Source of the DNA: Escherichia coli
Lineage (GTDB): Bacteria > Pseudomonadota > Gammaproteobacteria > Enterobacterales > Enterobacteriaceae
Length of the DNA stretch: 64,000 nucleotides
Reading direction: 5' to 3' (one strand)
NCBI RefSeq assembly: GCF_050920415.1
Contig: NZ_CP169309.1
Shown: piece by piece, positions 7,296 to 45,635 of the stretch
Layout: each line of letters begins with the position of its first letter
Numbering within the stretch: the stretch's first letter is position 1
The notes under the pieces: model-generated
Told to the model about the DNA's origin: nothing
Databases searched by the model: none
Seen by the model: only the letters and a program-made list of their open reading frames with translations
Position numbers and translations under genes: made by a program

Positions 7296-8639
7296 ATGCA
7301 TGTGCTTAACATTCTTTGGGTAGTATTCGGTATCGGTCTGATGCTGGTACTGAATTTGAAGTTCAAAATCAATTCAATGGTGGCTTTGCTAGTGGCGGCG
7401 CTATCCGTCGGGATGTTGGCGGGCATGGATTTGATGTCGCTGCTGCACACCATGAAAGCGGGCTTCGGCAACACGCTGGGGGAACTGGCAATCATTGTTG
7501 TGTTCGGTGCGGTCATTGGTAAATTGATGGTCGACTCCGGCGCGGCTCATCAGATAGCGCATACGCTGCTGGCGCGTCTCGGCCTGCGCTATGTCCAGAT
7601 ATCGGTGATTATCATCGGCCTGATTTTTGGTCTGGCGATGTTCTATGAAGTGGCCTTTATCATGTTAGCGCCGCTGGTTATCGTCATTGCCGCCGAAGCT
7701 AAAATTCCGTTCCTGAAACTGGCTATTCCGGCAGTAGCGGCTGCTACCACCGCACATTCACTTTTCCCTCCGCAGCCGGGTCCGGTGGCGCTGGTGAATG
7801 CTTATGGTGCAGATATGGGGATGGTTTATATCTATGGTGTACTGGTGACAATCCCAAGCGTAATCTGCGCAGGCCTGATTCTGCCGAAGTTCCTCGGTAA
7901 TCTTGAGCGCCCAACGCCATCATTCCTCAAAGCGGATCAACCGGTGGATATGAATAATCTCCCCTCTTTCGGCGTTTCGATTCTGGTACCGCTGATCCCG
8001 GCGATCATTATGATCTCTACCACTATCGCCAATATCTGGCTGGTCAAAGACACCCCTGCGTGGGAAGTCGTTAACTTTATCGGTTCATCGCCGATTGCAA
8101 TGTTTATTGCGATGGTGGTTGCATTCGTACTCTTTGGCACCGCGCGTGGTCATGACATGCAGTGGGTGATGAACGCCTTTGAAAGCGCGGTAAAAAGCAT
8201 TGCGATGGTGATTCTGATCATCGGTGCGGGCGGCGTGCTGAAGCAGACCATCATCGACACCGGCATTGGTGACACCATCGGCATGTTGATGTCCCACGGC
8301 AATATCTCGCCCTACATCATGGCGTGGCTGATCACTGTGCTAATTCGTCTGGCGACGGGTCAAGGTGTGGTTTCGGCGATGACTGCCGCCGGGATTATCA
8401 GTGCTGCAATCCTTGATCCAGCAACCGGTCAACTGGTTGGCGTGAATCCGGCGCTGCTGGTACTGGCGACGGCTGCGGGTTCCAACACCCTCACCCACAT
8501 TAACGATGCCTCATTCTGGTTGTTCAAAGGTTACTTTGACCTGTCAGTAAAAGACACGTTGAAAACATGGGGTCTGCTGGAGCTGGTCAACTCCGTGGTT
8601 GGGCTGATTATTGTGTTGATTATTAGCATGGTAGCGTAA
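7296..8639 (+). CDS. gntP: High-affinity gluconate permease (GntP family)
   Basis: 447-aa polytopic membrane protein ORF, divergent from uxuA. Confidence 0.9.
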
Positions 8640-19738: not shown

Positions 19739-20845
19739 ATGAATAAAACAATAACGGCGCTTGCTATCATGATGGCTTCATTTGCCGCAAACGCGTCTGT
19801 ATTACCGGAAACTCCGGTGCCATTTAAAAGTGGTACCGGAGCAATTGATAACGACACTGTCTACATTGGTTTAGGTAGCGCAGGTACGGCATGGTACAAG
19901 CTGGATACACAGGCCAAAGATAAAAAATGGATAGCGTTAGCTGCATTCCCTGATGGGGCGAGAGATCAAGCAACCTCTGCATTTATTGATGGCAATCTGT
20001 ACGTATTTGGCGGCATTGGCAAAAACAGCGAAGGCTTGACTCAGGTATTTAATGACGTACACAAATACAACCCCAAAACCAATAGCTGGGTTAAATTGAT
20101 GTCGCACGCGCCGATGGGCATGGCGGGCCATGTGACTTTTGTACACAACGGCAAGGCTTATGTTACTGGCGGTGTTAACCAGAATATCTTCAATGGCTAT
20201 TTTGAAGATCTCAACGAAGCTGGAAAAGATTCAACCGCTATAGATAAAATCAACGCCCACTATTTTGACAAAAAAGCAGAAGATTATTTCTTCAATAAGT
20301 TTCTGTTGTCTTTTGATCCCTCAACACAGCAATGGAGTTACGCTGGCGAATCTCCCTGGTACGGGACGGCTGGTGCAGCGGTTGTGAATAAAGGCGATAA
20401 AACCTGGCTTATTAATGGTGAAGCCAAACCAGGACTACGAACGGATGCCGTATTTGAACTTGATTTCACCGGTAATAATTTGAAATGGAATAAACTTGCT
20501 CCCGTCTCATCACCAGATGGCGTCGCTGGCGGTTTTGCAGGCATGAGCAATGACTCACTTATATTTGCCGGAGGGGCCGGATTCAAAGGTTCACGGGAAA
20601 ATTACCAAAACGGTAAGAACTATGCGCATGAAGGCCTGAAAAAATCATATAGCGCTGATATTCATCTTTGGCATAACGGGAAATGGGATAAATCGGGCGA
20701 ATTATCGCAAGGTCGGGCCTACGGAGTATCATTGCCCTGGAATAATAGTTTATTGATTATTGGCGGTGAAACTGCAGGCGGCAAAGCGGTAACGGATTCA
20801 GTATTGATCTCTGTGAAGGATAATAAAGTCACAGTGCAAAACTAA
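19739..20845 (+). CDS. nanM: N-acetylneuraminate epimerase/mutarotase (Kelch-repeat protein)
   Basis: 368 aa from the internal Met MNKTITALAIMMASFAANA (signal peptide); repeated GG/GH Kelch-like blades; directly follows nanC. Confidence 0.85.
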   Translation: MNKTITALAIMMASFAANASVLPETPVPFKSGTGAIDNDTVYIGLGSAGTAWYKLDTQAKDKKWIALAAFPDGARDQATSAFIDGNLYVFGGIGKNSEGLTQVFNDVHKYNPKTNSWVKLMSHAPMGMAGHVTFVHNGKAYVTGGVNQNIFNGYFEDLNEAGKDSTAIDKINAHYFDKKAEDYFFNKFLLSFDPSTQQWSYAGESPWYGTAGAAVVNKGDKTWLINGEAKPGLRTDAVFELDFTGNNLKWNKLAPVSSPDGVAGGFAGMSNDSLIFAGGAGFKGSRENYQNGKNYAHEGLKKSYSADIHLWHNGKWDKSGELSQGRAYGVSLPWNNSLLIIGGETAGGKAVTDSVLISVKDNKVTVQN

Positions 20846-20909
20846 CGCTTCAGGGCCCCAGTAAAGGGGCCCTACTATCAATTTATCATTTCAATTACGC
20901 GAAAATTAT

Positions 20910-21890
20910 ATGAACGCAATAATATCGCCCGATTATTACTATGTTCTTACCGTTGCTGGTCTGTCTAATGCCATGGCGTATGGCGAAGGACTGCCATTAC
21001 CGGACAGGGAAGATACGCCTCATCCCAGAATTAAACAATTAGCGAGATTTGCGCATACGCATCCCGGAGGCCCGTCATGTCACTTTAACGACATTATTCC
21101 ACTGACTCACTGCCCACACGATGTTCAGGATATGCAGGGTTATCACCATCCTCTGGCAACGAATCATCAAACACAGTACGGCACCGTTGGCCAGGCTCTG
21201 CATATTGCACGGAAATTACAGCCCTTTATTCCTGATAACGCGGGGGTTCTCATCGTTCCATGTTGCCGTGGCGGATCGGCTTTTACTGCGGGCAGCGAAG
21301 GGACATATTCAGAACGGCACGGAGCCAGCCATGATGCTTGTCGTTGGGGAACGGATACCCCTCTATACCAGGATTTAGTCAGCAGAACGCGAGCCGCACT
21401 GGCAAAAAATCCGCATAACAAATTCCTCGGCGTATGCTGGATGCAAGGCGAATTTGACTTAATGACAAGTGACTACGCGTCACACCCTCAACACTTTAAT
21501 CATATGGTTGAAGCCTTTCGTAGGGATCTAAAACAATACCATTCTCAGCTTAATAATATTACTGGCGCGCCGTGGTTTTGCGGCGATACCACCTGGTACT
21601 GGAAAGAAAGTTTCCCTCATGCGTATGAAGCTATTTATGGCAATTATCAAAATAATATTTTAGCCAATATTATTTTCATCGACTTCCAGCAACAAGGTGA
21701 AAGAGGGCTGACGAACGCGCCTGATGAAGATCCGGACGATTTAAGCACGGGATATTTCGGTTCAGCGTACCGGTCACCGGAGAACTGGACGACGGCACTG
21801 CGAAGCAGTCATTTCAGCGCGGCAGCCCGTCGGGGGATTATTTCTGACAGGTTTGTAGAAGCAATTTTGCAGTTTTGGAGCGAAAGGTGA
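20910..21890 (+). CDS. nanS: 9-O-acetyl-N-acetylneuraminate esterase (YjhS)
   Basis: 326-aa ORF downstream of nanM in the same orientation. Confidence 0.8.
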   Translation: MNAIISPDYYYVLTVAGLSNAMAYGEGLPLPDREDTPHPRIKQLARFAHTHPGGPSCHFNDIIPLTHCPHDVQDMQGYHHPLATNHQTQYGTVGQALHIARKLQPFIPDNAGVLIVPCCRGGSAFTAGSEGTYSERHGASHDACRWGTDTPLYQDLVSRTRAALAKNPHNKFLGVCWMQGEFDLMTSDYASHPQHFNHMVEAFRRDLKQYHSQLNNITGAPWFCGDTTWYWKESFPHAYEAIYGNYQNNILANIIFIDFQQQGERGLTNAPDEDPDDLSTGYFGSAYRSPENWTTALRSSHFSAAARRGIISDRFVEAILQFWSER

Positions 21891-22472
21891 GCGGGGAGTT
21901 TATTCATGGGGGATGTCCTTGTCCGTTCCCAAAACAGGCAACAAAAAACAAATGAGATCAAGGTAATATCTCTTCACTTGCAGGCTCGAACAGCAGGCAA
22001 TTGCCAATATAATAATCTGGCACAAGGGTGAAAAACGCGCACCGCATAAACCGTTGTTATTGCTTAAAGATTAGCCGGATGCCTTAATAGACATCCGCGC
22101 CTTTTCGATTATGGCTCGGAAATCTACGAACCTCTGCACAGTTTACTGGAACGTTTTGGACCACAGCGTTCACAGTACCGACCTGATATGCCGTTCTGGC
22201 GATTATAAGGCGACGGATTCTGGCAAATAGACGATGATAATATGCTTAATGATGTTCAAAGAAATTAGGCCATCATTATATTATTGCTTGCATTTTCTTT
22301 CATTCCCAAAAGCACCCGCCATTAATCCCAGGCGCATTATGCAAAGGAAAATGATTAGGTAAACAATAAGATTTATAATCAGGAAAGGCGACTCGCAATA
22401 AAACGCAAAGTCGCCTTAACATTGGTAAAATATGCCCTTTACTACTCCTGTATCATGAACGGCTCATCACAT

Positions 22473-25400
22473 TTAAAGCTGACGTTGATCCAGACTGCTA
22501 TATATTGCCTTTATTTCATTTTTTACGCTTTCGCCACGGTACACCAAAGACGTATCGTATCGTTGATACTTATCTTCCCGTGCAGCACTGAACCAGTTAA
22601 AAGATCCGACACACAGCAGTTCTTCATCCTCAATCACAATTTTGCTGTGGACACGATTAACCAATTTCGTAGCGATACCCATCTTATTGAGCTTTTCAAC
22701 AGCATCATTCAGCAGATGTTTTTTCTCCTGACGCTTATCATCATCGACATGCGCTATATTGCAGTTTTTATCCGTCACCACAGTAATATCAATGCCCCGG
22801 GAACGGGCCAAAGCCATTGATGCCAGAAATCCCGTTTGCTCCATTTTTTGCCAGGATAACCAAGGGGAAATAATCGTTATTTTCTTTTGAGCTCCGGCAA
22901 GAGTCATGTTCAAAAATTCATCATGCTGCTCCACGCCATGCAGCGTTGAAATTTGTGTATGTGCGGAAATTAAATCCTGTCGTTTATGAAACTCAAATTG
23001 CAACGCATTATTATCTGAAGAAAAGAGATATTTTGCCAATAACCCTCGCGGCGAAAATGCGGGCTGCATCTCGATAAGGTCCATATCGCCAAATACCAGA
23101 AAACTATCTTTAGCGCGTGAGACAGCAACATTGAGGATACTGCTGTTGCTATCAAGAAACCTGCCATCTTCATGTTTTGAGTAGACTGGAGAAAAGAGAA
23201 CAATCGCCCTTTCCGCCCCCTGCAAGGAGTGCACAGTCCCCACTGTCAGTGAACCCTCCTCGTCTTTGCCATTAATTTCCAGCTTACGCAATGACGTTTT
23301 GATAGCATTAACCTGCGCCGAAAATGGCGTCACAACACCAACAACTTTGTACAGTGGTTCCCCGTAATGGCGCTCTATATCATCCTTATGTGCCACCAGC
23401 CATGCTGCTATTGTTTCAGCTTCAAGAGGGTTATAACGGCTCCCCCCATTTGGCTTCATGCCTCTACCATCAATATGTAAATATCCCATTGCGGGGAAAA
23501 TCGTCCCTTTTTCCATCCCTCTTTTAGGCTGCAACTTACCGTGATAGCAAAGTGAGTTACAGTAGCCGATGATGTTATTGAAACAGCGACGATGCTCATA
23601 CAGATACATTCCGCGCTCGAACTTGGGATCATACTGGTAGTGAGAGTTAAACTGGGCTACCTGCATTACGCTGCCAGATGCTGCACTTTTTCCAGACCCA
23701 CACACGTGAGTATATGTATTTATTAACTCTTCCTGAGTGCCACCAGAAATAATATTCTCCTCAAGCATATTGCCCATATCAGTGACGGGTAGACAATTCC
23801 AGATTGGAGCTATTTGCTCCGTATCGCCAATCACCAGCGCTTTCTTCGCCAATGCAAAGGAAGCTGCAGCAACCTCCGGGAGTACCTGCCCGGCTTCATC
23901 GACAATCAGTAAATCAGCAAAGTTATATAAATAATTATTATCCGATGTTCTATCGCCACCAAAAGATTTTCTTCTGTTCATATGGTAAGGCAACATGTAG
24001 CAGGTCATCACCACACAAGGAGTAAGTTTCATTCTTCTTAGCCAACGAGCCTCGGCGATAGTTATCCCGGTAATTCCTTTTTCTTTTTGCAAATTATCTA
24101 TAGCTGCCATATCAATCAGCCAACGCCCCTCCCAATAATGGGTCGCTACCAAGAACGCTGGAAAACGAATCTGAGTATCGGCAAGTTCATCCGCTCCTGA
24201 AAGATTCAATTCATCGTCACCTCTGTAACCCAAAGCATAAGTCAACTCACGCCATTGTTTTGCAGCTTCTATTTCGCGTCGGGCTATATCCTTCGCATAG
24301 TTGATGTTCTGTTGGCACTCATCCTGCTCCTTTTGCGTTTTAGCAATCAAACTATCAATAAATTCATCAATATCTTCGGGATAATTTCCCTGGAACGATG
24401 TCATTCTTGTGCCAAACGTAGAGTCCAGGAAGAGGTTAATCTGGTAATGGCGTTTAGTACGAACAGCAGGAAGCCATGACAAAACCGCATACACTAGCGA
24501 CTCATCAGCACGGTATTGCTGCCACTGCTTTTTACCTCTTGTTAAAAGTGAAATTTCATTGCCAATATTGAGAAGACGTGTGTTTTCGTCCTGAAGATAC
24601 TGGTCGAGATTCTCACTGATGGCTCGCTGTTCATGGCGGATATCATTAAGCCTGCGCCATGTGGGTTCGATTTGCTGAAGTTGAATAAACTGTGAAGTTA
24701 AACGTTCATGCAAAAGCGTCACTACATGCTCTGGTGAATTGCACTCTCCAGCTCCAAACGCCACCTCCGCTTTTTCAAGGTAAAATGCCCGGGCTTTTTC
24801 CAGATATTCCTGGGATTCAACGTGGTTAAAAAAATCTTCAGTCTGGTATTTCTTCGCAGCCTCAACCTGACGGCTTTTAGACGGAAAATAAGCGCCATAG
24901 CTTATTACCTCCGGCAACCAACGACCAGCCATTACGCCAAAACCAGTAGAGAAATCTTTTCCAAAGGCTTCAATAATATTGGTGACGGCCTGATTGTTAG
25001 TTGATGTGGCAATAATTACAGGAGGTTCAGCTTGATTAAGTGCGGCTCTAGTCCATTCGGTGGCGATAATAGAAAGCACCAGCGTAGTTTTACCCGTTCC
25101 CGGAGGACCGTTAACAGCGAGCATATCCCCCTGCTGTTGAGTCAGATAATGGCTCAGGGCATCGCGCTGCGCCACTGCCAGCGGAAACTTATCGCCGGAA
25201 TGCCCCAGACGTTCGCAGAACATAGCATTCTTAGCGAGAAGTGGCTCTAGTGGAACCATTTCATTTGAGGCAAAACGCGTTAATAGAGGAACCTTAACCT
25301 GGCTCATCAGCAGATGGTCATACAAAGGCAGGATATGAACACTGGCCCCTACATGCTGGCTAGCTTTAACAATATAACCGTATCCAGCCCGTTCGTATGG

Positions 25401-25988
25401 CTCAGATGTAGCGACCCAATTTCCAGCGACGTTTCTTAAAAGGTTATCTGACTGTTGAAGATAATTTTGCCAATGCTGACGATACCTGGCATGGCGTTCC
25501 GCTTTCTCTTCGTCAGTTTCTTTGTAATGTTCTGGTTGACCTTCATTAATGGTGGCTGTGTTATGCGTAGTTTTGTATTTGTCATATTGCACCAACTCAC
25601 CAATAGAAAAATGACCGGAAGGGAGAGGTTCAAGCAGATCGCGGGGAATAGTGGCTGAAGCGGCAGGAAACAAAAAACCTTCCCTATTAAGAAGAGCGGA
25701 GGTAACCAGTGGCGTAATAATTGCGGGTGCACCTGCCGTTTGCTCTTTGCCATGCTTTACAATGCGGTTCCACACCTGGGGCCGTAACACGACTTCAACG
25801 TTTTTTACAGACTCCCCTTCACCGTCAAAAAATGCCCGAATAGTTTCGTCATCCAACTGCCCTGCGGTGATATTTATCCACCGAATGAATGATTCCGTAT
25901 CTTTACGTGAAAACGTTCCTTTGCCAGATTCGGCGTCAGCTAGGGAGTTGCGCCAGTATGAAGTGAATCCCAATGTATTGCTGTCCAT
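22473..25988 (-). CDS. Large SF1 helicase (Upf1/Dna2-like ATPase core) fused to a C-terminal phospholipase-D/HKD nuclease domain; candidate single-gene defence protein
   Basis: 1171-codon [15 protein letters not shown] Walker A (aa 294-302; nt 25083-25109); LLIVDEAGQ motif II (DEAGQ aa 697-701; nt 23886-23900); [11 protein letters not shown] and [10 protein letters not shown] resembling SF1 motifs V/VI; C-terminal [21 protein letters not shown] = HxK(x)4D...GSxN signature (nt 22596-22649); sits immediately 3' of tRNA-leuX. Confidence 0.8.
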
Positions 25989-26253
25989 TTCTCATTCCGT
26001 GACATAATAGAAATCATTGATTTCATTGATGTAAATATTACTTATGATTAAACATTGTCCACGATGCGAGCGCGATCGCAATAAATATTGTGCCTGGAGG
26101 ATGGATTAGATTTTCTGAAAGAGCTAAATCCTTAATAGATAAACGCGTACATACTTGGTTCGGTATTCTTAAGGGATTTAATATGGATTGAACCAGGTTG
26201 ACGTTAGTTGAAAAAAACAGTGGAAAAGATTTGTGTGGCGCGGATTTCAGGCA

Positions 26254-26278
26254 TAAAAAAAGACCTCAGTTGAGGTCT
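26254..26278 (-). terminator. Probable intrinsic terminator of tRNA-leuX
   Basis: Hairpin agacctca/tgaggtct; read on the minus strand it is followed by a run of 7 T, directly after the tRNA 3' end. Confidence 0.5.
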
Positions 26279-26291
26279 ATTTACATACTTT

Positions 26292-26376
26292 TGGTGCCGA
26301 AGGCCGGACTCGAACCGGCACGTATTTCTACGGTTGATTTTGAATCAACTGCGTCTACCGATTTCGCCACTTCGGC
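26292..26376 (-). tRNA. leuX: tRNA-Leu (anticodon CAA)
   Basis: Reverse complement reads GCCGAAGTGGCGAAATCGGTAGACGCAGTTGATTCAAAATCAACCGTAGAAATACGTGCCGGTTCGAGTCCGGCCTTCGGCACCA: 85 nt, cloverleaf-compatible, CAA anticodon, encoded CCA end. Confidence 0.95.
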
Positions 26377-26571
26377 ACTGAAGAGGTATGCGGAAAACGT
26401 TGTGGATTATACCTGTCGCACGCCACCATGCAAGCGCCAGCTTGCTCGCACCTCGCTAAGTGCTGAAATTTTCAGCATTGCATACAGCGATGTGCAACCT
26501 TTGTCACACTCCAGGCACCACGCCCTACCATGCTCTACACTTCCCAGACAACACCAGAGAAGGACAAAAAT

Positions 26572-27591
26572 ATGTCGATGATAAAAAGCTATGCCGCAAA
26601 AGAGGCTGGCGGCAAACTGGAAGTTTATGAGTACGATCCCGGTGAACTGAAGCCACAAGATGTCGAAGTGCAGGTGGATTACTGCGGGATCTGCCATTCC
26701 GATCTGTCGATGATCGACAACGAATGGGGATTTTCACAGTATCCGCTGGTTGCCGGGCATGAGGTGATTGGGCGCGTGGTGGCGCTCGGGAGCGCCGCGC
26801 AGGATAAAGGTTTGCAGGTCGGTCAGCGTGTCGGGATTGGCTGGACGGCGCGAAGCTGTGGTCACTGCGATGCCTGTATTAGCGGTAATCAGATCAACTG
26901 TGAGCAAGGTGCGGTGCCAACAATTATGAATCGCGGCGGTTTTGCCGAGAAGTTGCGTGCAGACTGGCAATGGGTGATTCCACTGCCGGAAAATATCGAT
27001 ATCGAATCCGCCGGGCCGCTGCTGTGTGGTGGTATCACGGTCTTCAAACCACTGTTAATGCACCATATCACTGCCACCAGCCGCGTTGGGGTAATTGGTA
27101 TTGGCGGGCTGGGGCATATCGCTATAAAACTTCTGCACGCAATGGGATGCGAGGTGACGGCCTTTAGTTCTAATCCGGCGAAAGAGCAGGAAGTGCTGGC
27201 GATGGGTGCCGATAAAGTAGTGAATAGCCGCGATCCGCAGGCACTGAAAGCACTGGCGGGGCAGTTTGATCTCATTATCAACACCGTCAACGTCAGCCTC
27301 GACTGGCAGCCTTATTTTGAGGCGCTGACGTATGGCGGTAATTTCCATACAGTCGGCGCGGTCCTCACGCCGCTGTCTGTTCCGGCCTTTACGTTAATTG
27401 CGGGCGACCGCAGCGTCTCTGGTTCAGCAACAGGTACACCTTATGAGCTGCGTAAGCTGATGCGCTTTGCCGCCCGCAGCAAGGTTGCGCCGACTACCGA
27501 ACTGTTCCCGATGTCGAAAATTAACGACGCCATTCAGCATGTACGCGATGGTAAAGCGCGCTACCGCGTGGTGTTGAAAGCAGATTTTTGA
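26572..27591 (+). CDS. ahr: NADPH-dependent Zn-containing aldehyde reductase (YjgB)
   Basis: 339 aa from [14 protein letters not shown]; zinc-ADH signatures ([23 protein letters not shown]) and a GxGxxG NAD(P) fold. Confidence 0.85.
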
Positions 27592-27594
27592 AAA

Positions 27595-28158
27595 TCATTC
27601 GCAGCGCTGATCTGAGGCGCTGCCCTCTTTCGCACATATTCTGTTTTGTCTTATCGCCAGCACAGCCTGCCGACATTGTTCGGTGACATTGGCAATATCA
27701 TGGTTGATATCAATGCGCACAATATCCTGTTCATCTGCTTGTGGTCGCTCCAGCGCCTCAAACTGACTTTTTAGTAACGCTACCGGCATAAAATGCCCAG
27801 CCCGACGCTGCATTCGCGCGAGAATAGTTTCATAATCGCCATCTAACCAGAGGAAATGAACATGGGGGCTACCCTTGCGTAAAATATCACGATACTGTTT
27901 TTTTAATGATGAACAGACAATAAATCCTGTTTCATTCTTTTTATAAAGACTGTATGAAGCATCATTTAAGCGTTCCAGCCAGGGAAGTCGATCTTCATCA
28001 GATAATGGAATGCCTTGCGACATTTTATCTATATTTTTGGCTGGATGAAGATCGTCACCATCAATAAATTTCGCAGACAATAACGCGGCAACCTTGCTAC
28101 CAATTAATGTTTTACCACTCCCTGATACGCCCATCAAAATAAAGCTTTCACCCGCCAT
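27595..28158 (-). CDS. idnK: Gluconokinase (thermosensitive, GntII system)
   Basis: 187-aa ORF with P-loop GVSGSGKT; divergent from idnD. Confidence 0.85.
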   Translation of the reverse strand: MAGESFILMGVSGSGKTLIGSKVAALLSAKFIDGDDLHPAKNIDKMSQGIPLSDEDRLPWLERLNDASYSLYKKNETGFIVCSSLKKQYRDILRKGSPHVHFLWLDGDYETILARMQRRAGHFMPVALLKSQFEALERPQADEQDIVRIDINHDIANVTEQCRQAVLAIRQNRICAKEGSASDQRCE

Positions 28159-43993: not shown

Positions 43994-44410
43994 TTAGTGG
44001 CGAACTCCGTCATCGTCTTCATCGACAAAATCTTCATCGTCGCCATCTTCGCCGTTAGGATCTTCAAAGTAAGTGCCCCAACCGTCGTACTCAACGTCAA
44101 ATTTCTCTGCCAGCGTCATCAGTTGTTCAACCTGGGCATCGATCAGATCGGCATTCAACGCGCACTCGCTGAGGATGTCGCAGCAAATCACCACATCACC
44201 ATCCTCTACTTCCAGTTCTTCCGGATCGGTGACTTCATATCCGAGTTTAAACGCTTCTACCGCTGCTTTCTCCAGCGTTTCAAGGTCGTCTGCGGAAAGA
44301 TGGTGCTCAATGGTGTACAGCGCATCTGGATCGCTGCCATCTTCCAGTAATTCTTCAATAATTAAACGTGTTTCTTCACGCTGTTCTTCCAGTTGTTCCG
44401 GGTTTGCCAT
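43994..44410 (-). CDS. rraB: RNase E inhibitor RraB
   Basis: 138-aa acidic ORF ([29 protein letters not shown]... with a D/E-rich C-terminus). Confidence 0.85.
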
Positions 44411-44507
44411 GGCTCATTCCTCTTAATGTCCTGCCGATACTCTTATTGTCACACACCACTGACATTGCCTCCACCTTTGTGATAAAGATTTATGCTTTAG
44501 ACTTGCA

Positions 44508-44544
44508 AATGAATAACCATACATATAAATTGAATTTTAATTCA
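44508..44544 (+). promoter_or_regulatory. argI promoter region with tandem ARG boxes (ArgR operators)
   Basis: tgaattttaattca palindrome at 44531-44544 with an adjacent tgaataaccataca half-palindrome, about 30-60 bp upstream of the argI ATG. Confidence 0.5.
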
Positions 44545-44571
44545 TTTAGGCGTTAGCCACAGGAGGGATCT

Positions 44572-45576
44572 ATGTCCGGGTTTTATCATAAGCATTTCCT
44601 GAAATTACTCGATTTCACGCCAGCTGAACTTAACAGCCTGCTGCAGTTAGCCGCGAAGCTGAAAGCCGATAAGAAAAGCGGTAAAGAAGAAGCCAAACTC
44701 ACTGGTAAAAACATCGCGCTCATCTTCGAAAAAGACTCGACCCGTACCCGATGCTCTTTCGAAGTTGCCGCATATGACCAGGGTGCTCGCGTTACTTATC
44801 TCGGTCCAAGCGGCAGCCAAATTGGTCATAAAGAGTCGATTAAAGACACTGCCCGCGTGCTTGGTCGCATGTATGACGGTATTCAGTATCGCGGCTATGG
44901 TCAGGAGATTGTCGAAACACTGGCGGAATACGCTGGCGTGCCGGTATGGAACGGCCTGACCAATGAGTTTCACCCCACGCAGCTGCTGGCGGATCTCCTC
45001 ACCATGCAGGAGCATTTGCCCGGCAAAGCGTTCAACGAAATGACGCTGGTCTATGCAGGTGACGCACGTAACAACATGGGCAATTCGATGCTCGAAGCTG
45101 CAGCGCTTACCGGTCTGGATTTGCGTCTGGTCGCGCCACAGGCGTGCTGGCCAGAAGCTGCGCTGGTTACGGAATGCCGCGCCCTGGCACAACAAAATGG
45201 CGGGAATATTACGCTGACGGAAGATGTAGCTAAAGGAGTTGAAGGTGCTGACTTTATCTATACCGATGTATGGGTGTCGATGGGTGAAGCAAAAGAAAAA
45301 TGGGCTGAACGCATTGCATTACTGCGTGATTATCAGGTGAACAGCAAGATGATGCAGTTGACCGGTAACCCGGAGGTCAAATTCCTCCACTGCCTGCCCG
45401 CGTTTCATGACGACCAAACGACGCTTGGCAAAAAAATGGCGGAAGAGTTTGGCCTACATGGCGGAATGGAAGTGACTGATGAGGTCTTCGAATCTCCCGC
45501 CAGCATTGTATTTGATCAGGCGGAAAACCGCATGCATACCATCAAAGCGGTGATGGTCGCGACGCTCAGTAAATAA
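44572..45576 (+). CDS. argI: Ornithine carbamoyltransferase
   Basis: 334-aa ORF with carbamoyl-phosphate-binding STRTR and the HCLP motif. Confidence 0.95.
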
Positions 45577-45592
45577 TTGACATCTCTATAAA

Positions 45593-45635
45593 GATGCCGG
45601 GAAATACAAAAAATATCCCGGCATCATATTATTTT
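45593..45635. terminator. Probable bidirectional intrinsic terminator between argI and yjgL
   Basis: gatgccggg-N15-cccggcatc hairpin with A/T runs on both sides, between convergent genes. Confidence 0.55.

Follow-up and report, generated by a model that had tools for sequence, protein, structure and literature searches.

The leuX–nanS interval of the Escherichia coli DNA analysed here (a stretch of 64,000 nucleotides from contig NZ_CP169309.1, hereafter the window) is very probably an unoccupied leuX hotspot, in which the sequence between the two genes is the resident flank, a small decayed defence module that retains an intact Mokosh type II gene, yjhR. leuX serves as an attachment gene for P4-like satellites and for islands with P4-type integrases. 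It anchors defence hotspot #37; according to a review (PMC12707154), 97% of isolates have defence genes there, and an integrase typically occupies the side next to the tRNA. The vacancy of the site would explain why yjhR survives whole in the window. The Mokosh II system, hotspot #37, and the link between yjhR and Mokosh have all been published already; the window is a rare state of known parts, and no new system, mechanism, or element type is revealed by it. It can serve as a clean reference point for the busiest defence hotspot of E. coli in its ancestral or empty form, and it allows the long-annotated K-12 pseudogene yjhR to be explained as the remaining 3′ part of a Mokosh type II immune gene.

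Content of the leuX–nanS interval

ARAGORN detects one tRNA gene on the 64-kb window, a tRNA-Leu(CAA) at 26292–26376 on the minus strand, which corresponds to leuX, scores 59.4 bits against the Rfam tRNA model, and is annotated as tRNA-Leu in the identical RefSeq record. As leuX lies on the minus strand, its 3′ end points toward lower coordinates. The far boundary of the interval is formed by nanS (20910–21890, plus strand), an intact 326-aa ORF encoding sialate O-acetylesterase that is 97% identical to K-12 nanS. The gap between nanS and the 3′ end of leuX measures 4401 bp, in agreement with the spacing of about 4.4 kb given in the earlier note, and the limits of the interval, 21891–26376, are exact. 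The core genes around the interval, ahr/idn toward one end and nanCMS/fim toward the other, are those of the leuX hotspot generally.

The sole long ORF between nanS and leuX is located at 22473–25988 on the minus strand and encodes 1171 aa, and the leuX–yjhR spacer (25989–26291, minus strand, 303 bp) contains only spurious ORFs of at least 60 aa. A tblastn search of the whole 64-kb window with three leuX-island or P4-type integrases (those of 536, B7A, and a P4-like element) returned no match at E ≤ 1e-5, and the same queries detected no integrase remnant in any of the outgroup loci. The RefSeq annotation of a 100%-identical record contains no IS element in 21891–26376. The 25 nt at the 3′ end of leuX occur once only in the window when up to three mismatches are allowed, and the last 16 nt have only two distant chance matches, at 7458 and 40691, neither of which lies in the interval. 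The absence of an integrase, an IS element, and a direct repeat of the tRNA 3′ end, as stated in the earlier note, is thus borne out for the interval. Of the usual attributes of a genomic island, the integrase and the far-end repeat are absent, and strain-variable presence and an atypical GC content (yjhR has 45.1% and the spacer 35%, compared with 48.4% in the window and 54.2% in ahr) are present. The interval had been described as a minimal islet; it is indeed short and integrase-less, but a more fitting description is that of a resident flank beside a vacant attachment site.

The interval had also been said to hold just a helicase–nuclease gene, and this is correct with regard to intact genes, of which there is a single one, but two decayed endonuclease remnants are also present at 21880–22256, beside nanS. 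The first, identified by tblastn and blastn at 21990–22256 on the plus strand and labelled a pseudogene in the annotation of the identical record, derives from a phosphorothioate-DNA-binding type IV restriction endonuclease (REase) gene. It retains the N-terminal ~96 of 290 aa, is frameshifted, and has a 725-bp deletion; with the intact protein as the tblastn query, only aa 8–28 and 40–96 of 290 can still be recognised, spread over two frames. NF045808 (phosphorothioate-DNA-dependent restriction endonuclease) is matched by the intact homologue with 437 bits, and the remnant falls short of the full-length SBD and HNH protein of ~285–290 aa that this family comprises. The second, at 21880–21996, is made up of the 5′-terminal part of an HNH endonuclease gene and the region between this gene and the REase gene; blastn comparison with two loci in which nanS and the REase gene are separated by a 651-bp HNH gene (L005 and L012) places a deletion of ~627 bp here, with a 14-bp overlap at the junction. 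Both endonuclease genes are intact in genomes with a yjhR allele of 94% identity, which reveals the origin of the remnants. Two deletions would have cut the neighbouring type IV-like HNH and phosphorothioate-dependent REase genes to stubs, and the presence of two such remnants alongside yjhR suggests that the ancestral module had three genes.

The helicase–nuclease gene yjhR

The product of 22473–25988, named 'helicase YjhR' in RefSeq (WP_000378101.1), is, by its sequence, a full-length Mokosh type II protein (MkoC), in which an SF1 Upf1-like helicase is fused to a PLD nuclease. The PADLOC MkoC profile PDLC03924 is matched with 1466 bits (E = 0), residues 1–1169 aligning with positions 1–1135 of the 1136 in the profile, and the Pfam domains comprise AAA_11 (aa 273–461), AAA_12 (aa 795–969), and PLDc_2 (aa 1029–1153), with a Pfam PLDc active-site match at aa 1110–1134. 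A motif scan of the translation located the Walker A motif GPPGTGKT (aa 294–301; 25086–25109), the Walker B motif LLIVDEA (aa 693–699; 23892–23912), and the PLD active site HSKIVIED (aa 1114–1121; 22626–22649) with GSFN at aa 1128–1131, all encoded on the minus strand; the Walker A, Walker B, and HKD motifs are all intact. The helicase and nuclease domains noticed earlier are therefore both present, but the gene is not an anonymous one, as the profile match identifies it as mkoC.

Mokosh II consists of one helicase–PLD gene, and mutants in the ATPase site and in the PLD site lose defence (10.1101/2022.05.11.491447); EcMokosh II has been described as a monomer of ~132 kDa (10.1101/2025.07.10.664194). 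YjhR resembles Mokosh type II as defined by Millman et al. (2022) in its length of ~1170 aa, its N-terminal Upf1-like SF1 helicase (COG1112), and its C-terminal PLD nuclease, and its mass of ~133 kDa fits that reported for the EcMokosh II monomer. In contrast, it differs from the commoner E. coli MkoC of the PAI II536 type, with which it shares ~68% nucleotide identity and which scores 1684 bits on the profile that YjhR matches with 1466. Since this paralogue outscores YjhR, the E. coli Mokosh II that has been tested may belong to the paralogue clade. By analogy with the published mutagenesis of other Mokosh II systems, YjhR may be active in anti-phage defence; the ATP-driven Upf1-like SF1 helicase would sense phage nucleic acid, and the C-terminal PLD-family nuclease would act as the effector.

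The plain name in RefSeq, together with NCBIfam helicase matches that are all sub-threshold, would also suit a core-genome housekeeping DNA or RNA helicase that lies near leuX incidentally. This seems highly improbable, as YjhR aligns from end to end with the profile of a defence system, restriction-endonuclease genes or what remains of them lie next to yjhR, and mkoC adjoins type I restriction genes in other genera; a housekeeping role is effectively refuted by the distribution of yjhR, which only 0.2% of E. coli genomes have intact and the others have truncated or not at all.

The leuX site in K-12 and in the E. coli population

Alignment of the window to K-12 MG1655 (NC_000913.3, blastn) is colinear on both sides of the interval, with 20003–23700 corresponding to K-12 4538501–4534805 at 97.1% identity and 26242–28000 corresponding to K-12 4496539–4494781. 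The intervening 2541 bp (23701–26241), which comprise yjhR codons 1–762 and 253 bp of the spacer, are missing from K-12 and are replaced by 38,265 bp of KpLE2, such that the K-12 order is leuX, intB′, ~38 kb of KpLE2, the yjhR pseudogene, and nanS; the KpLE2 element with intB that the earlier note had placed at K-12 leuX is indeed found there. The K-12-type pseudogene corresponds to the 3′-terminal 1228 bp of the window ORF (22473–23700, minus strand), which are 98.2% identical in BW25113; the cut falls at codon 763. The supposition that K-12 yjhR is a fragment of a gene that remains uninterrupted in the window is therefore correct, and by position and sequence the two can be taken as orthologues. 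K-12 yjhR (b4308) occupies the same locus beside nanS, with the same strand relation, but it lacks codons 1–762, with the Walker A and Walker B motifs, and the promoter region. K-12 is in effect a natural null mutant for this allele, so that complementation could draw on the window, in which the gene is whole and has its native promoter. The distal part of KpLE2 (yjhP-yjhQ-topAI-yjhZ) was considered as a counterpart of the distal ends of islands in which yjhR is whole, and was rejected, as there is no homology beyond yjhR itself.

Among 5426 complete E. coli genomes, full-length yjhR occurs in 12 (0.2%) and lies directly beside leuX, as in the window, in only 3, while 1729 genomes, about one third, carry the 3′ fragment alone, at a coverage of at least 80% in 1568 of them. 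The site thus varies from strain to strain, as the earlier note had anticipated; the gene could instead have been universal, or unrelated to K-12 yjhR, and neither is the case. A core-region search indicates that the lineage of the window is rare and that the carriers of full-length yjhR do not form one clade. The leuX–yjhR junction is 99.5–100% identical in three complete genomes of independent origin (Korea and the USA) and constitutes a clean single att site, which leaves a negligible probability that the short interval is an assembly artefact in which an island was collapsed or dropped. The term resident flank is a relative one, in that the GC content of yjhR is below that of the window (45.1% versus 48.4%) and yjhR alleles of 94% and 88% identity occupy the same position.

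The att core (26286–26315) is present in the window as a single uninterrupted copy and is duplicated in occupied genomes. In the nine other genomes with full-length yjhR, different elements are inserted between leuX and yjhR; some are P4-like satellites with integrase, primase, Psu, and Sid-like genes, some are toxin–antitoxin-rich islands, and some are IS-rich islands with restriction-endonuclease and DNA-methyltransferase genes. On the yjhR side of each insertion, a copy of 17–24 nt of the leuX 3′ end abuts the same 303-bp spacer. In NZ_AP027764.1, homology on the yjhR side extends to 26315 and that on the leuX side starts from 26286, with a 12-kb P4-like satellite in between, and the attR copies in eight further genomes comprise 17–23 nt of the tRNA end. 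As the elements in these nine relatives are bounded by copies of the tRNA end, the window can be read as the unoccupied attachment site: the two flanks that are joined here are split in the relatives by an element with attL and attR copies of the core, as befits an attB. The satellites and the islands with P4-type integrases would recombine into the last ~20 nt of leuX, displacing yjhR from the tRNA gene, and in the KpLE2 lineage a later deletion would have taken the far end of the island, attR, the spacer, and yjhR codons 1–762, producing the K-12 pseudogene. The window shares the tRNA anchor and the flanking core genes with the leuX integration hotspot of KpLE2, PAI II536, and the P4 attB, defence hotspot #37 of Hochhauser et al. 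(2023), but it differs from a typical hotspot #37 in that the att site is empty and the sole defence gene is a resident flank gene. The main text of Hochhauser et al. contains no detail on leuX or yjhR.

The emptiness of the site may itself be secondary, if a satellite or island with a working integrase was excised precisely and recently, restoring attB. The closest yjhR alleles (99.7%) reside in genomes with a P4-like satellite or a toxin–antitoxin island whose attL/attR and integrase are intact, and the three empty-site genomes are not mutual nearest relatives, as judged from a core region 20–35 kb away, which fits repeated gain and loss. As precise excision is scarless, an emptied site and a never-occupied one would look alike, and the window holds no scar to set them apart; several attR copies, however, carry a 1-nt deletion that would survive some crossover positions, and this deletion is absent from the window. 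Such an excision is possible but rather doubtful.

Relationship of the yjhR module to integrase-bearing islands

The paralogue, which is 68% identical to yjhR at the nucleotide level, lies next to a PAI II536-type island integrase in ~880 of the 5426 genomes. It also encodes 1171 aa, follows immediately after the P4-type integrase gene, and is located at leuX in strain 536, whereas another strain has it at pheV. The PAI II536-type module and the window agree in that the first cargo gene past leuX is an mkoC with the same orientation to the tRNA gene; in the module, though, the tRNA gene and mkoC are separated by a 1263-bp tyrosine integrase gene, which has no counterpart in the window. The yjhR module could accordingly be the relic of an older leuX island, arranged as leuX–int–mkoC like PAI II536, from which the integrase was deleted, and this reading can be entertained seriously, if short of being favoured. 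The homology with the paralogue reaches 35 bp upstream of the yjhR ATG, and both the gene (45.1%) and the spacer (35%) are low in GC. In Pantoea endophytica, mkoC is located directly after tRNA-Leu(CAA) without an integrase, and in Xenorhabdus kozodoii one gene separates the two; orthologues of ~70% identity extend as far as Aeromonas, which implies horizontal transfer.

The spacer bears on the same question. In its entirety it was found in 11 genomes only (spacer search), and only its leuX-proximal part is common to the left arms of islands, between the tRNA and the integrase: the proximal 50 bp are 100% identical in the K-12 class, ~114 bp are ~86% identical in the O157 class, and 147 bp are ~88–91% identical in the B7A class. 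As up to 147 bp beside leuX resemble the integrase-proximal arms of islands, the module may itself derive from an older island. The first 50 bp, however, contain the tRNA's own intrinsic terminator (26261–26278, minus strand), which consists of a hairpin with the 7-bp stem AGACCTCAACTGAGGTCT followed by TTTTTTT (terminator scan) and is kept beside leuX in K-12, 536, and B7A; islands are expected to copy it, so homology there says little. Moreover, the segment 26024–26144 matches none of the five loci compared (K-12, 536, a pheV island, B7A, and a P4-like satellite genome), tblastn detected no remnant of an integrase, and the interval holds no far-end att repeat; in genomes whose HNH gene is intact there is no room for one, as that gene ends within a few bases of nanS. 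An origin from an older island would be compatible with an att site that is unoccupied today.

The yjhR-proximal part of the spacer (25989–26095, minus strand) forms a block that travels with yjhR and is conserved across genera, as seen in 17 upstream regions from 10 genera, and that also aligns pairwise with Pantoea. An RNA element was considered for the region upstream of yjhR and was rejected, as Rfam finds the tRNA only and RNAalifold gives −0.8 kcal/mol with no covariation. The block contains a −35-like TGGACA at 26061 and is predicted to be a promoter/operator acting at the DNA level rather than an RNA element. On a speculative and unlikely reading, mkoC and this block of ~110 bp would constitute a self-contained cassette that recurs after tRNA-Leu(CAA) without an integrase and possibly guards the attachment site against satellites and islands; were this true, the K-12-type 5′ truncation would be the outcome of a conflict between island and guard, not of neutral decay. 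Among phage records, the matches are only short unannotated Salmonella fragments at 60–69% identity and more distant sequences, and plasmid records give whole-protein matches at 53–63% identity, while three plasmid records have 90–99% identity; the close yjhR family seems to be mainly chromosomal.

An unoccupied attachment site at leuX

The sole tRNA gene in the window is a tRNA-Leu(CAA) gene on the minus strand (26292-26376), identified as leuX by its neighbours: ahr, idnK, and idnD to one side; nanS, nanM, and nanC to the other. The leuX locus is hotspot #37, at which defence genes have been reported in 97% of isolates (PMC12707154). The 3' end of leuX faces an AT-rich spacer of 303 bp (25989-26291, 35.3% GC), followed on the same strand by the yjhR ORF of 1171 codons (22473-25988), and a 582-bp gap without ORFs separates yjhR from nanS, which resides on the plus strand (20910-21890) and is complete with 326 codons, as in K-12. 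The coordinates of the minimal one-gene islet described in the earlier note (21891-26376) are exact. The window is 100% identical across 21000-27500 to E. coli MFDS1022581 (NZ_CP169399.1), in which the ORF is annotated as 'helicase YjhR'.

Among 5426 complete E. coli genomes, the 5' part of yjhR (23701-25988) is present at a coverage of at least 80% in 12; their alleles are of two kinds, with six at 99.6-100% and six at about 94.5% identity to the window. The diagnostic leuX–yjhR junction (25600-26700) is found in only three of the 5426 (MFDS1022581, 2020CK-00188, and R32_14_1F). In the other nine full-length genomes, leuX is separated from yjhR by one of several kinds of element: a P4-like satellite encoding an integrase, a primase, capsid-assembly proteins, Psu, and Icd-like and delta-like products; a toxin–antitoxin-rich island; or an IS-rich island with restriction-endonuclease and DNA-methyltransferase genes. 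In all nine, homology to the window covers yjhR, the entire spacer, and the leuX 3' end and stops at 26309-26315, leaving a partial copy of the tRNA end (17-23 nt) followed by element DNA. The leuX-side homology in NZ_AP027764.1 restarts at 26286, and therefore approximately 30 bp are duplicated around its 12-kb satellite. The att core is present in a single copy in the window and no integrase was found in its 64 kb, bearing out the earlier report of neither an integrase nor a direct repeat of the tRNA 3' end. The window therefore shows, in its empty state, the site used by these satellites and islands.

The attR copies in three comparison loci (L005 9768-9873, L007 9778-9883, and L015 7604-7709) have a common 1-nt deletion (TGGTGC-GAAGG), and the islands they adjoin are of three kinds and the yjhR alleles of two; a third group, in loci L012-L014, has the exact tRNA sequence. 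The common deletion could reflect the swapping of islands with retention of an old attR, or a variant attP common to the elements.

The core segment at 44000-60000 (mgtA, treBC, argF, and others; 18-34 kb away) is matched at an identity of at least 99% in only two of the 5426 genomes; the next-best matches reach 98.4% and 98.1%, most E. coli genomes are at about 97%, and the host therefore belongs to a rare, sparsely sampled lineage. The matches at 98.1% come from two further genomes with the 99.7% allele, and the other two empty-site genomes are not among the best 45 records for this segment; the leuX–yjhR segment is thus common to distinct backgrounds. Across 25600-26700, 1246 records are merely 90-95% identical to the window (E. 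coli B7A, about 91%), and the unusually divergent ahr (26530-27591) and leuX-proximal segment fits recombination or hitch-hiking beside the hotspot.

An IS2 element lies within nanS of MFDS1022581 at the equivalent of window 20962-20966, where the alignments overlap by 5 bp, and is absent from the window. As only one mismatch occurs over the 6631 bp upstream of this site, the window represents a near-identical strain or an IS-free version of MFDS1022581. The PGAP label 'sialate O-acetylesterase, incomplete, missing C-terminus' (345-615 bp) is applied to nanS in many fetched genomes and an intact call is made in others, which looks like annotation inconsistency and not biology.

Truncation of yjhR in K-12

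The order in MG1655 is leuX, intB', several IS elements, fec/sgc/yjh genes, the yjhR pseudogene, ythB, and nanS. By local BLAST, window 20003-23700 corresponds to K-12 4538501-4534805 (97.1%) and window 26242-28000 to K-12 4496539-4494781 (96.8%). The alignment to MG1655, which the earlier note had proposed, thus finds both flanks colinear with KpLE2 between them, and the 38,265 bp of KpLE2 therefore replace 2541 bp of the window (23701-26241), comprising yjhR codons 1-762 and 253 bp of the spacer. The remainder of yjhR in K-12 has neither Walker motif and no promoter. The description in that note of an intB-bearing KpLE2 and a yjhR fragment of this gene was correct, and its observation and interpretation hold. 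The 3' fragment of 1228 bp occurs in 1729 of the 5426 genomes (1568 at a coverage of at least 80%), and the K-12 breakpoint is common to most such fragments. A subclass about 125 bp shorter, as in the urinary isolate S65EC, adjoins ISEc52 beside the same KpLE2 distal genes.

Genome annotation and a preprint (10.1101/2022.12.12.520048) have already made the connection to K-12 yjhR, the latter by linking yjhR to Mokosh. This analysis adds precise breakpoints for K-12, evidence from att sites that the window is in the empty state, the frequency of that state (3/5426), and the identification of two endonuclease remnants.

YjhR as a Mokosh type II protein and its origin

YjhR matches the PADLOC MkoC profile (E=0, 1466 bits), with residues 1-1169 aligned to profile positions 1-1135 of 1136. 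Pfam identifies AAA_11 and AAA_12, which together make up an SF1 Upf1/DNA2-like helicase, and, at the C-terminus, a PLDc_2 domain that includes the PLD active-site motif; NCBIfam returns helicase matches only, all sub-threshold. The Walker A (GPPGTGKT, residues 294-301), Walker B (LLIVDEA, residues 693-699), and HKD (HSKIVIED, residues 1114-1121) motifs are intact. YjhR shares the defining domain architecture of Mokosh type II, a single gene whose product has an RNA-helicase-like domain at its N-terminus and a PLD nuclease at its C-terminus; in published work, defence was lost when either the ATP-binding or the PLD active site was mutated (10.1101/2022.05.11.491447). E. coli Mokosh II is reported in a later preprint to be a monomer of approximately 132 kDa that gave protection against a single member of the phage panel used, the ssDNA phage SECphi17 (10.1101/2025.07.10.664194). 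By its sequence, yjhR (mkoC) belongs to an already described defence system, Mokosh type II, and the hotspot in which it lies is likewise already described.

The evidence on the origin of the yjhR module is mixed, and both a native flank and an island origin are retained. A 68%-identical paralogue in about 880 of the 5426 genomes, also of 1171 residues (1684 bits on MkoC), is the first gene after a P4-type integrase in PAI II536, the leuX island of strain 536, and in a related island at pheV. An island origin is also favoured by GC content (gene 45.1%, spacer 35.3%, window 48.4%) and by the resemblance between the 50-147 bp of spacer nearest leuX and the arms joining tRNA to integrase in the K-12, O157, and B7A islands, although the 50 bp directly after leuX are merely its terminator, window 26024-26144 is unmatched in all five representative loci compared, and the module has neither an integrase remnant nor a far-end repeat. 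Two further observations favour an island origin. Full-length orthologues in Pantoea, Enterobacter, Xenorhabdus, Serratia, Yersinia, Erwinia, Buttiauxella, and Aeromonas are 66-73% identical in amino acids; such like identity over unlike host distances indicates horizontal transfer. The Pantoea endophytica mkoC lies 191 bp after tRNA-Leu(CAA), without an integrase, and in Xenorhabdus kozodoii one unknown gene lies between the two.

The stretch of approximately 110 bp preceding the mkoC start codon (25989-26095, minus strand) is conserved in 10 genera, in which the proteins are just 66-73% identical. The consensus includes TTATTGCGATCGnGTTCGCATCGTGGACAATGTTTAATCAT and ATCAACGAAATCAATAATTTT, and the block contains an inverted repeat (TGCGA-N7-TCGCA) next to a −35-like TGGACA; no RNA structure or Rfam match was found in it. 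It looks like a putative promoter/operator travelling with the gene.

Endonuclease remnants beside nanS

In the six genomes with the 94% allele, nanS and yjhR are separated by two intact genes: an HNH endonuclease gene of 651 bp and a restriction endonuclease (REase) gene of 873 bp, which matches NCBIfam NF045808, 'phosphorothioated DNA-binding restriction endonuclease' (437 bits). Relative to these genomes, the window has two deletions, both also in K-12, which remove about 627 bp, nearly the whole HNH gene, and 725 bp of the REase gene, leaving remnants at 21880-21996 and 21990-22256. These remnants were overlooked in the earlier description of an interval holding just the helicase–nuclease gene. 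As both genes are intact in the 94%-allele genomes, the ancestral flank was a three-gene defence module, of which mkoC is the sole intact member here.

The resident flank gene at the hotspot is a predicted phosphorothioate-DNA-cutting type IV endonuclease, deleted in most strains (remnant 21990-22256). The B7A leuX island (L017 1-8949) carries dptFGH, which are phosphorothioation-dependent restriction genes, and incompatibility between dptFGH and the flank endonuclease might have caused the decay of the latter. In Enterobacter asburiae (L023 8001-12546), mkoC is followed by a convergent NF045808-type phosphorothioate-DNA endonuclease with 32% identity to the Escherichia one (154.8 bits, under the 180-bit NF045808 cut-off), and the pairing may go beyond chance co-location. 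A 3.2-kb contig labelled 'MAG: Collinsella sp.' (JAIJJM010000365.1) spans the end of nanS, the endonuclease remnant, and a K-12-type truncated yjhR (residues 759-1171, 97%); it almost certainly comes from E. coli and was mis-binned.
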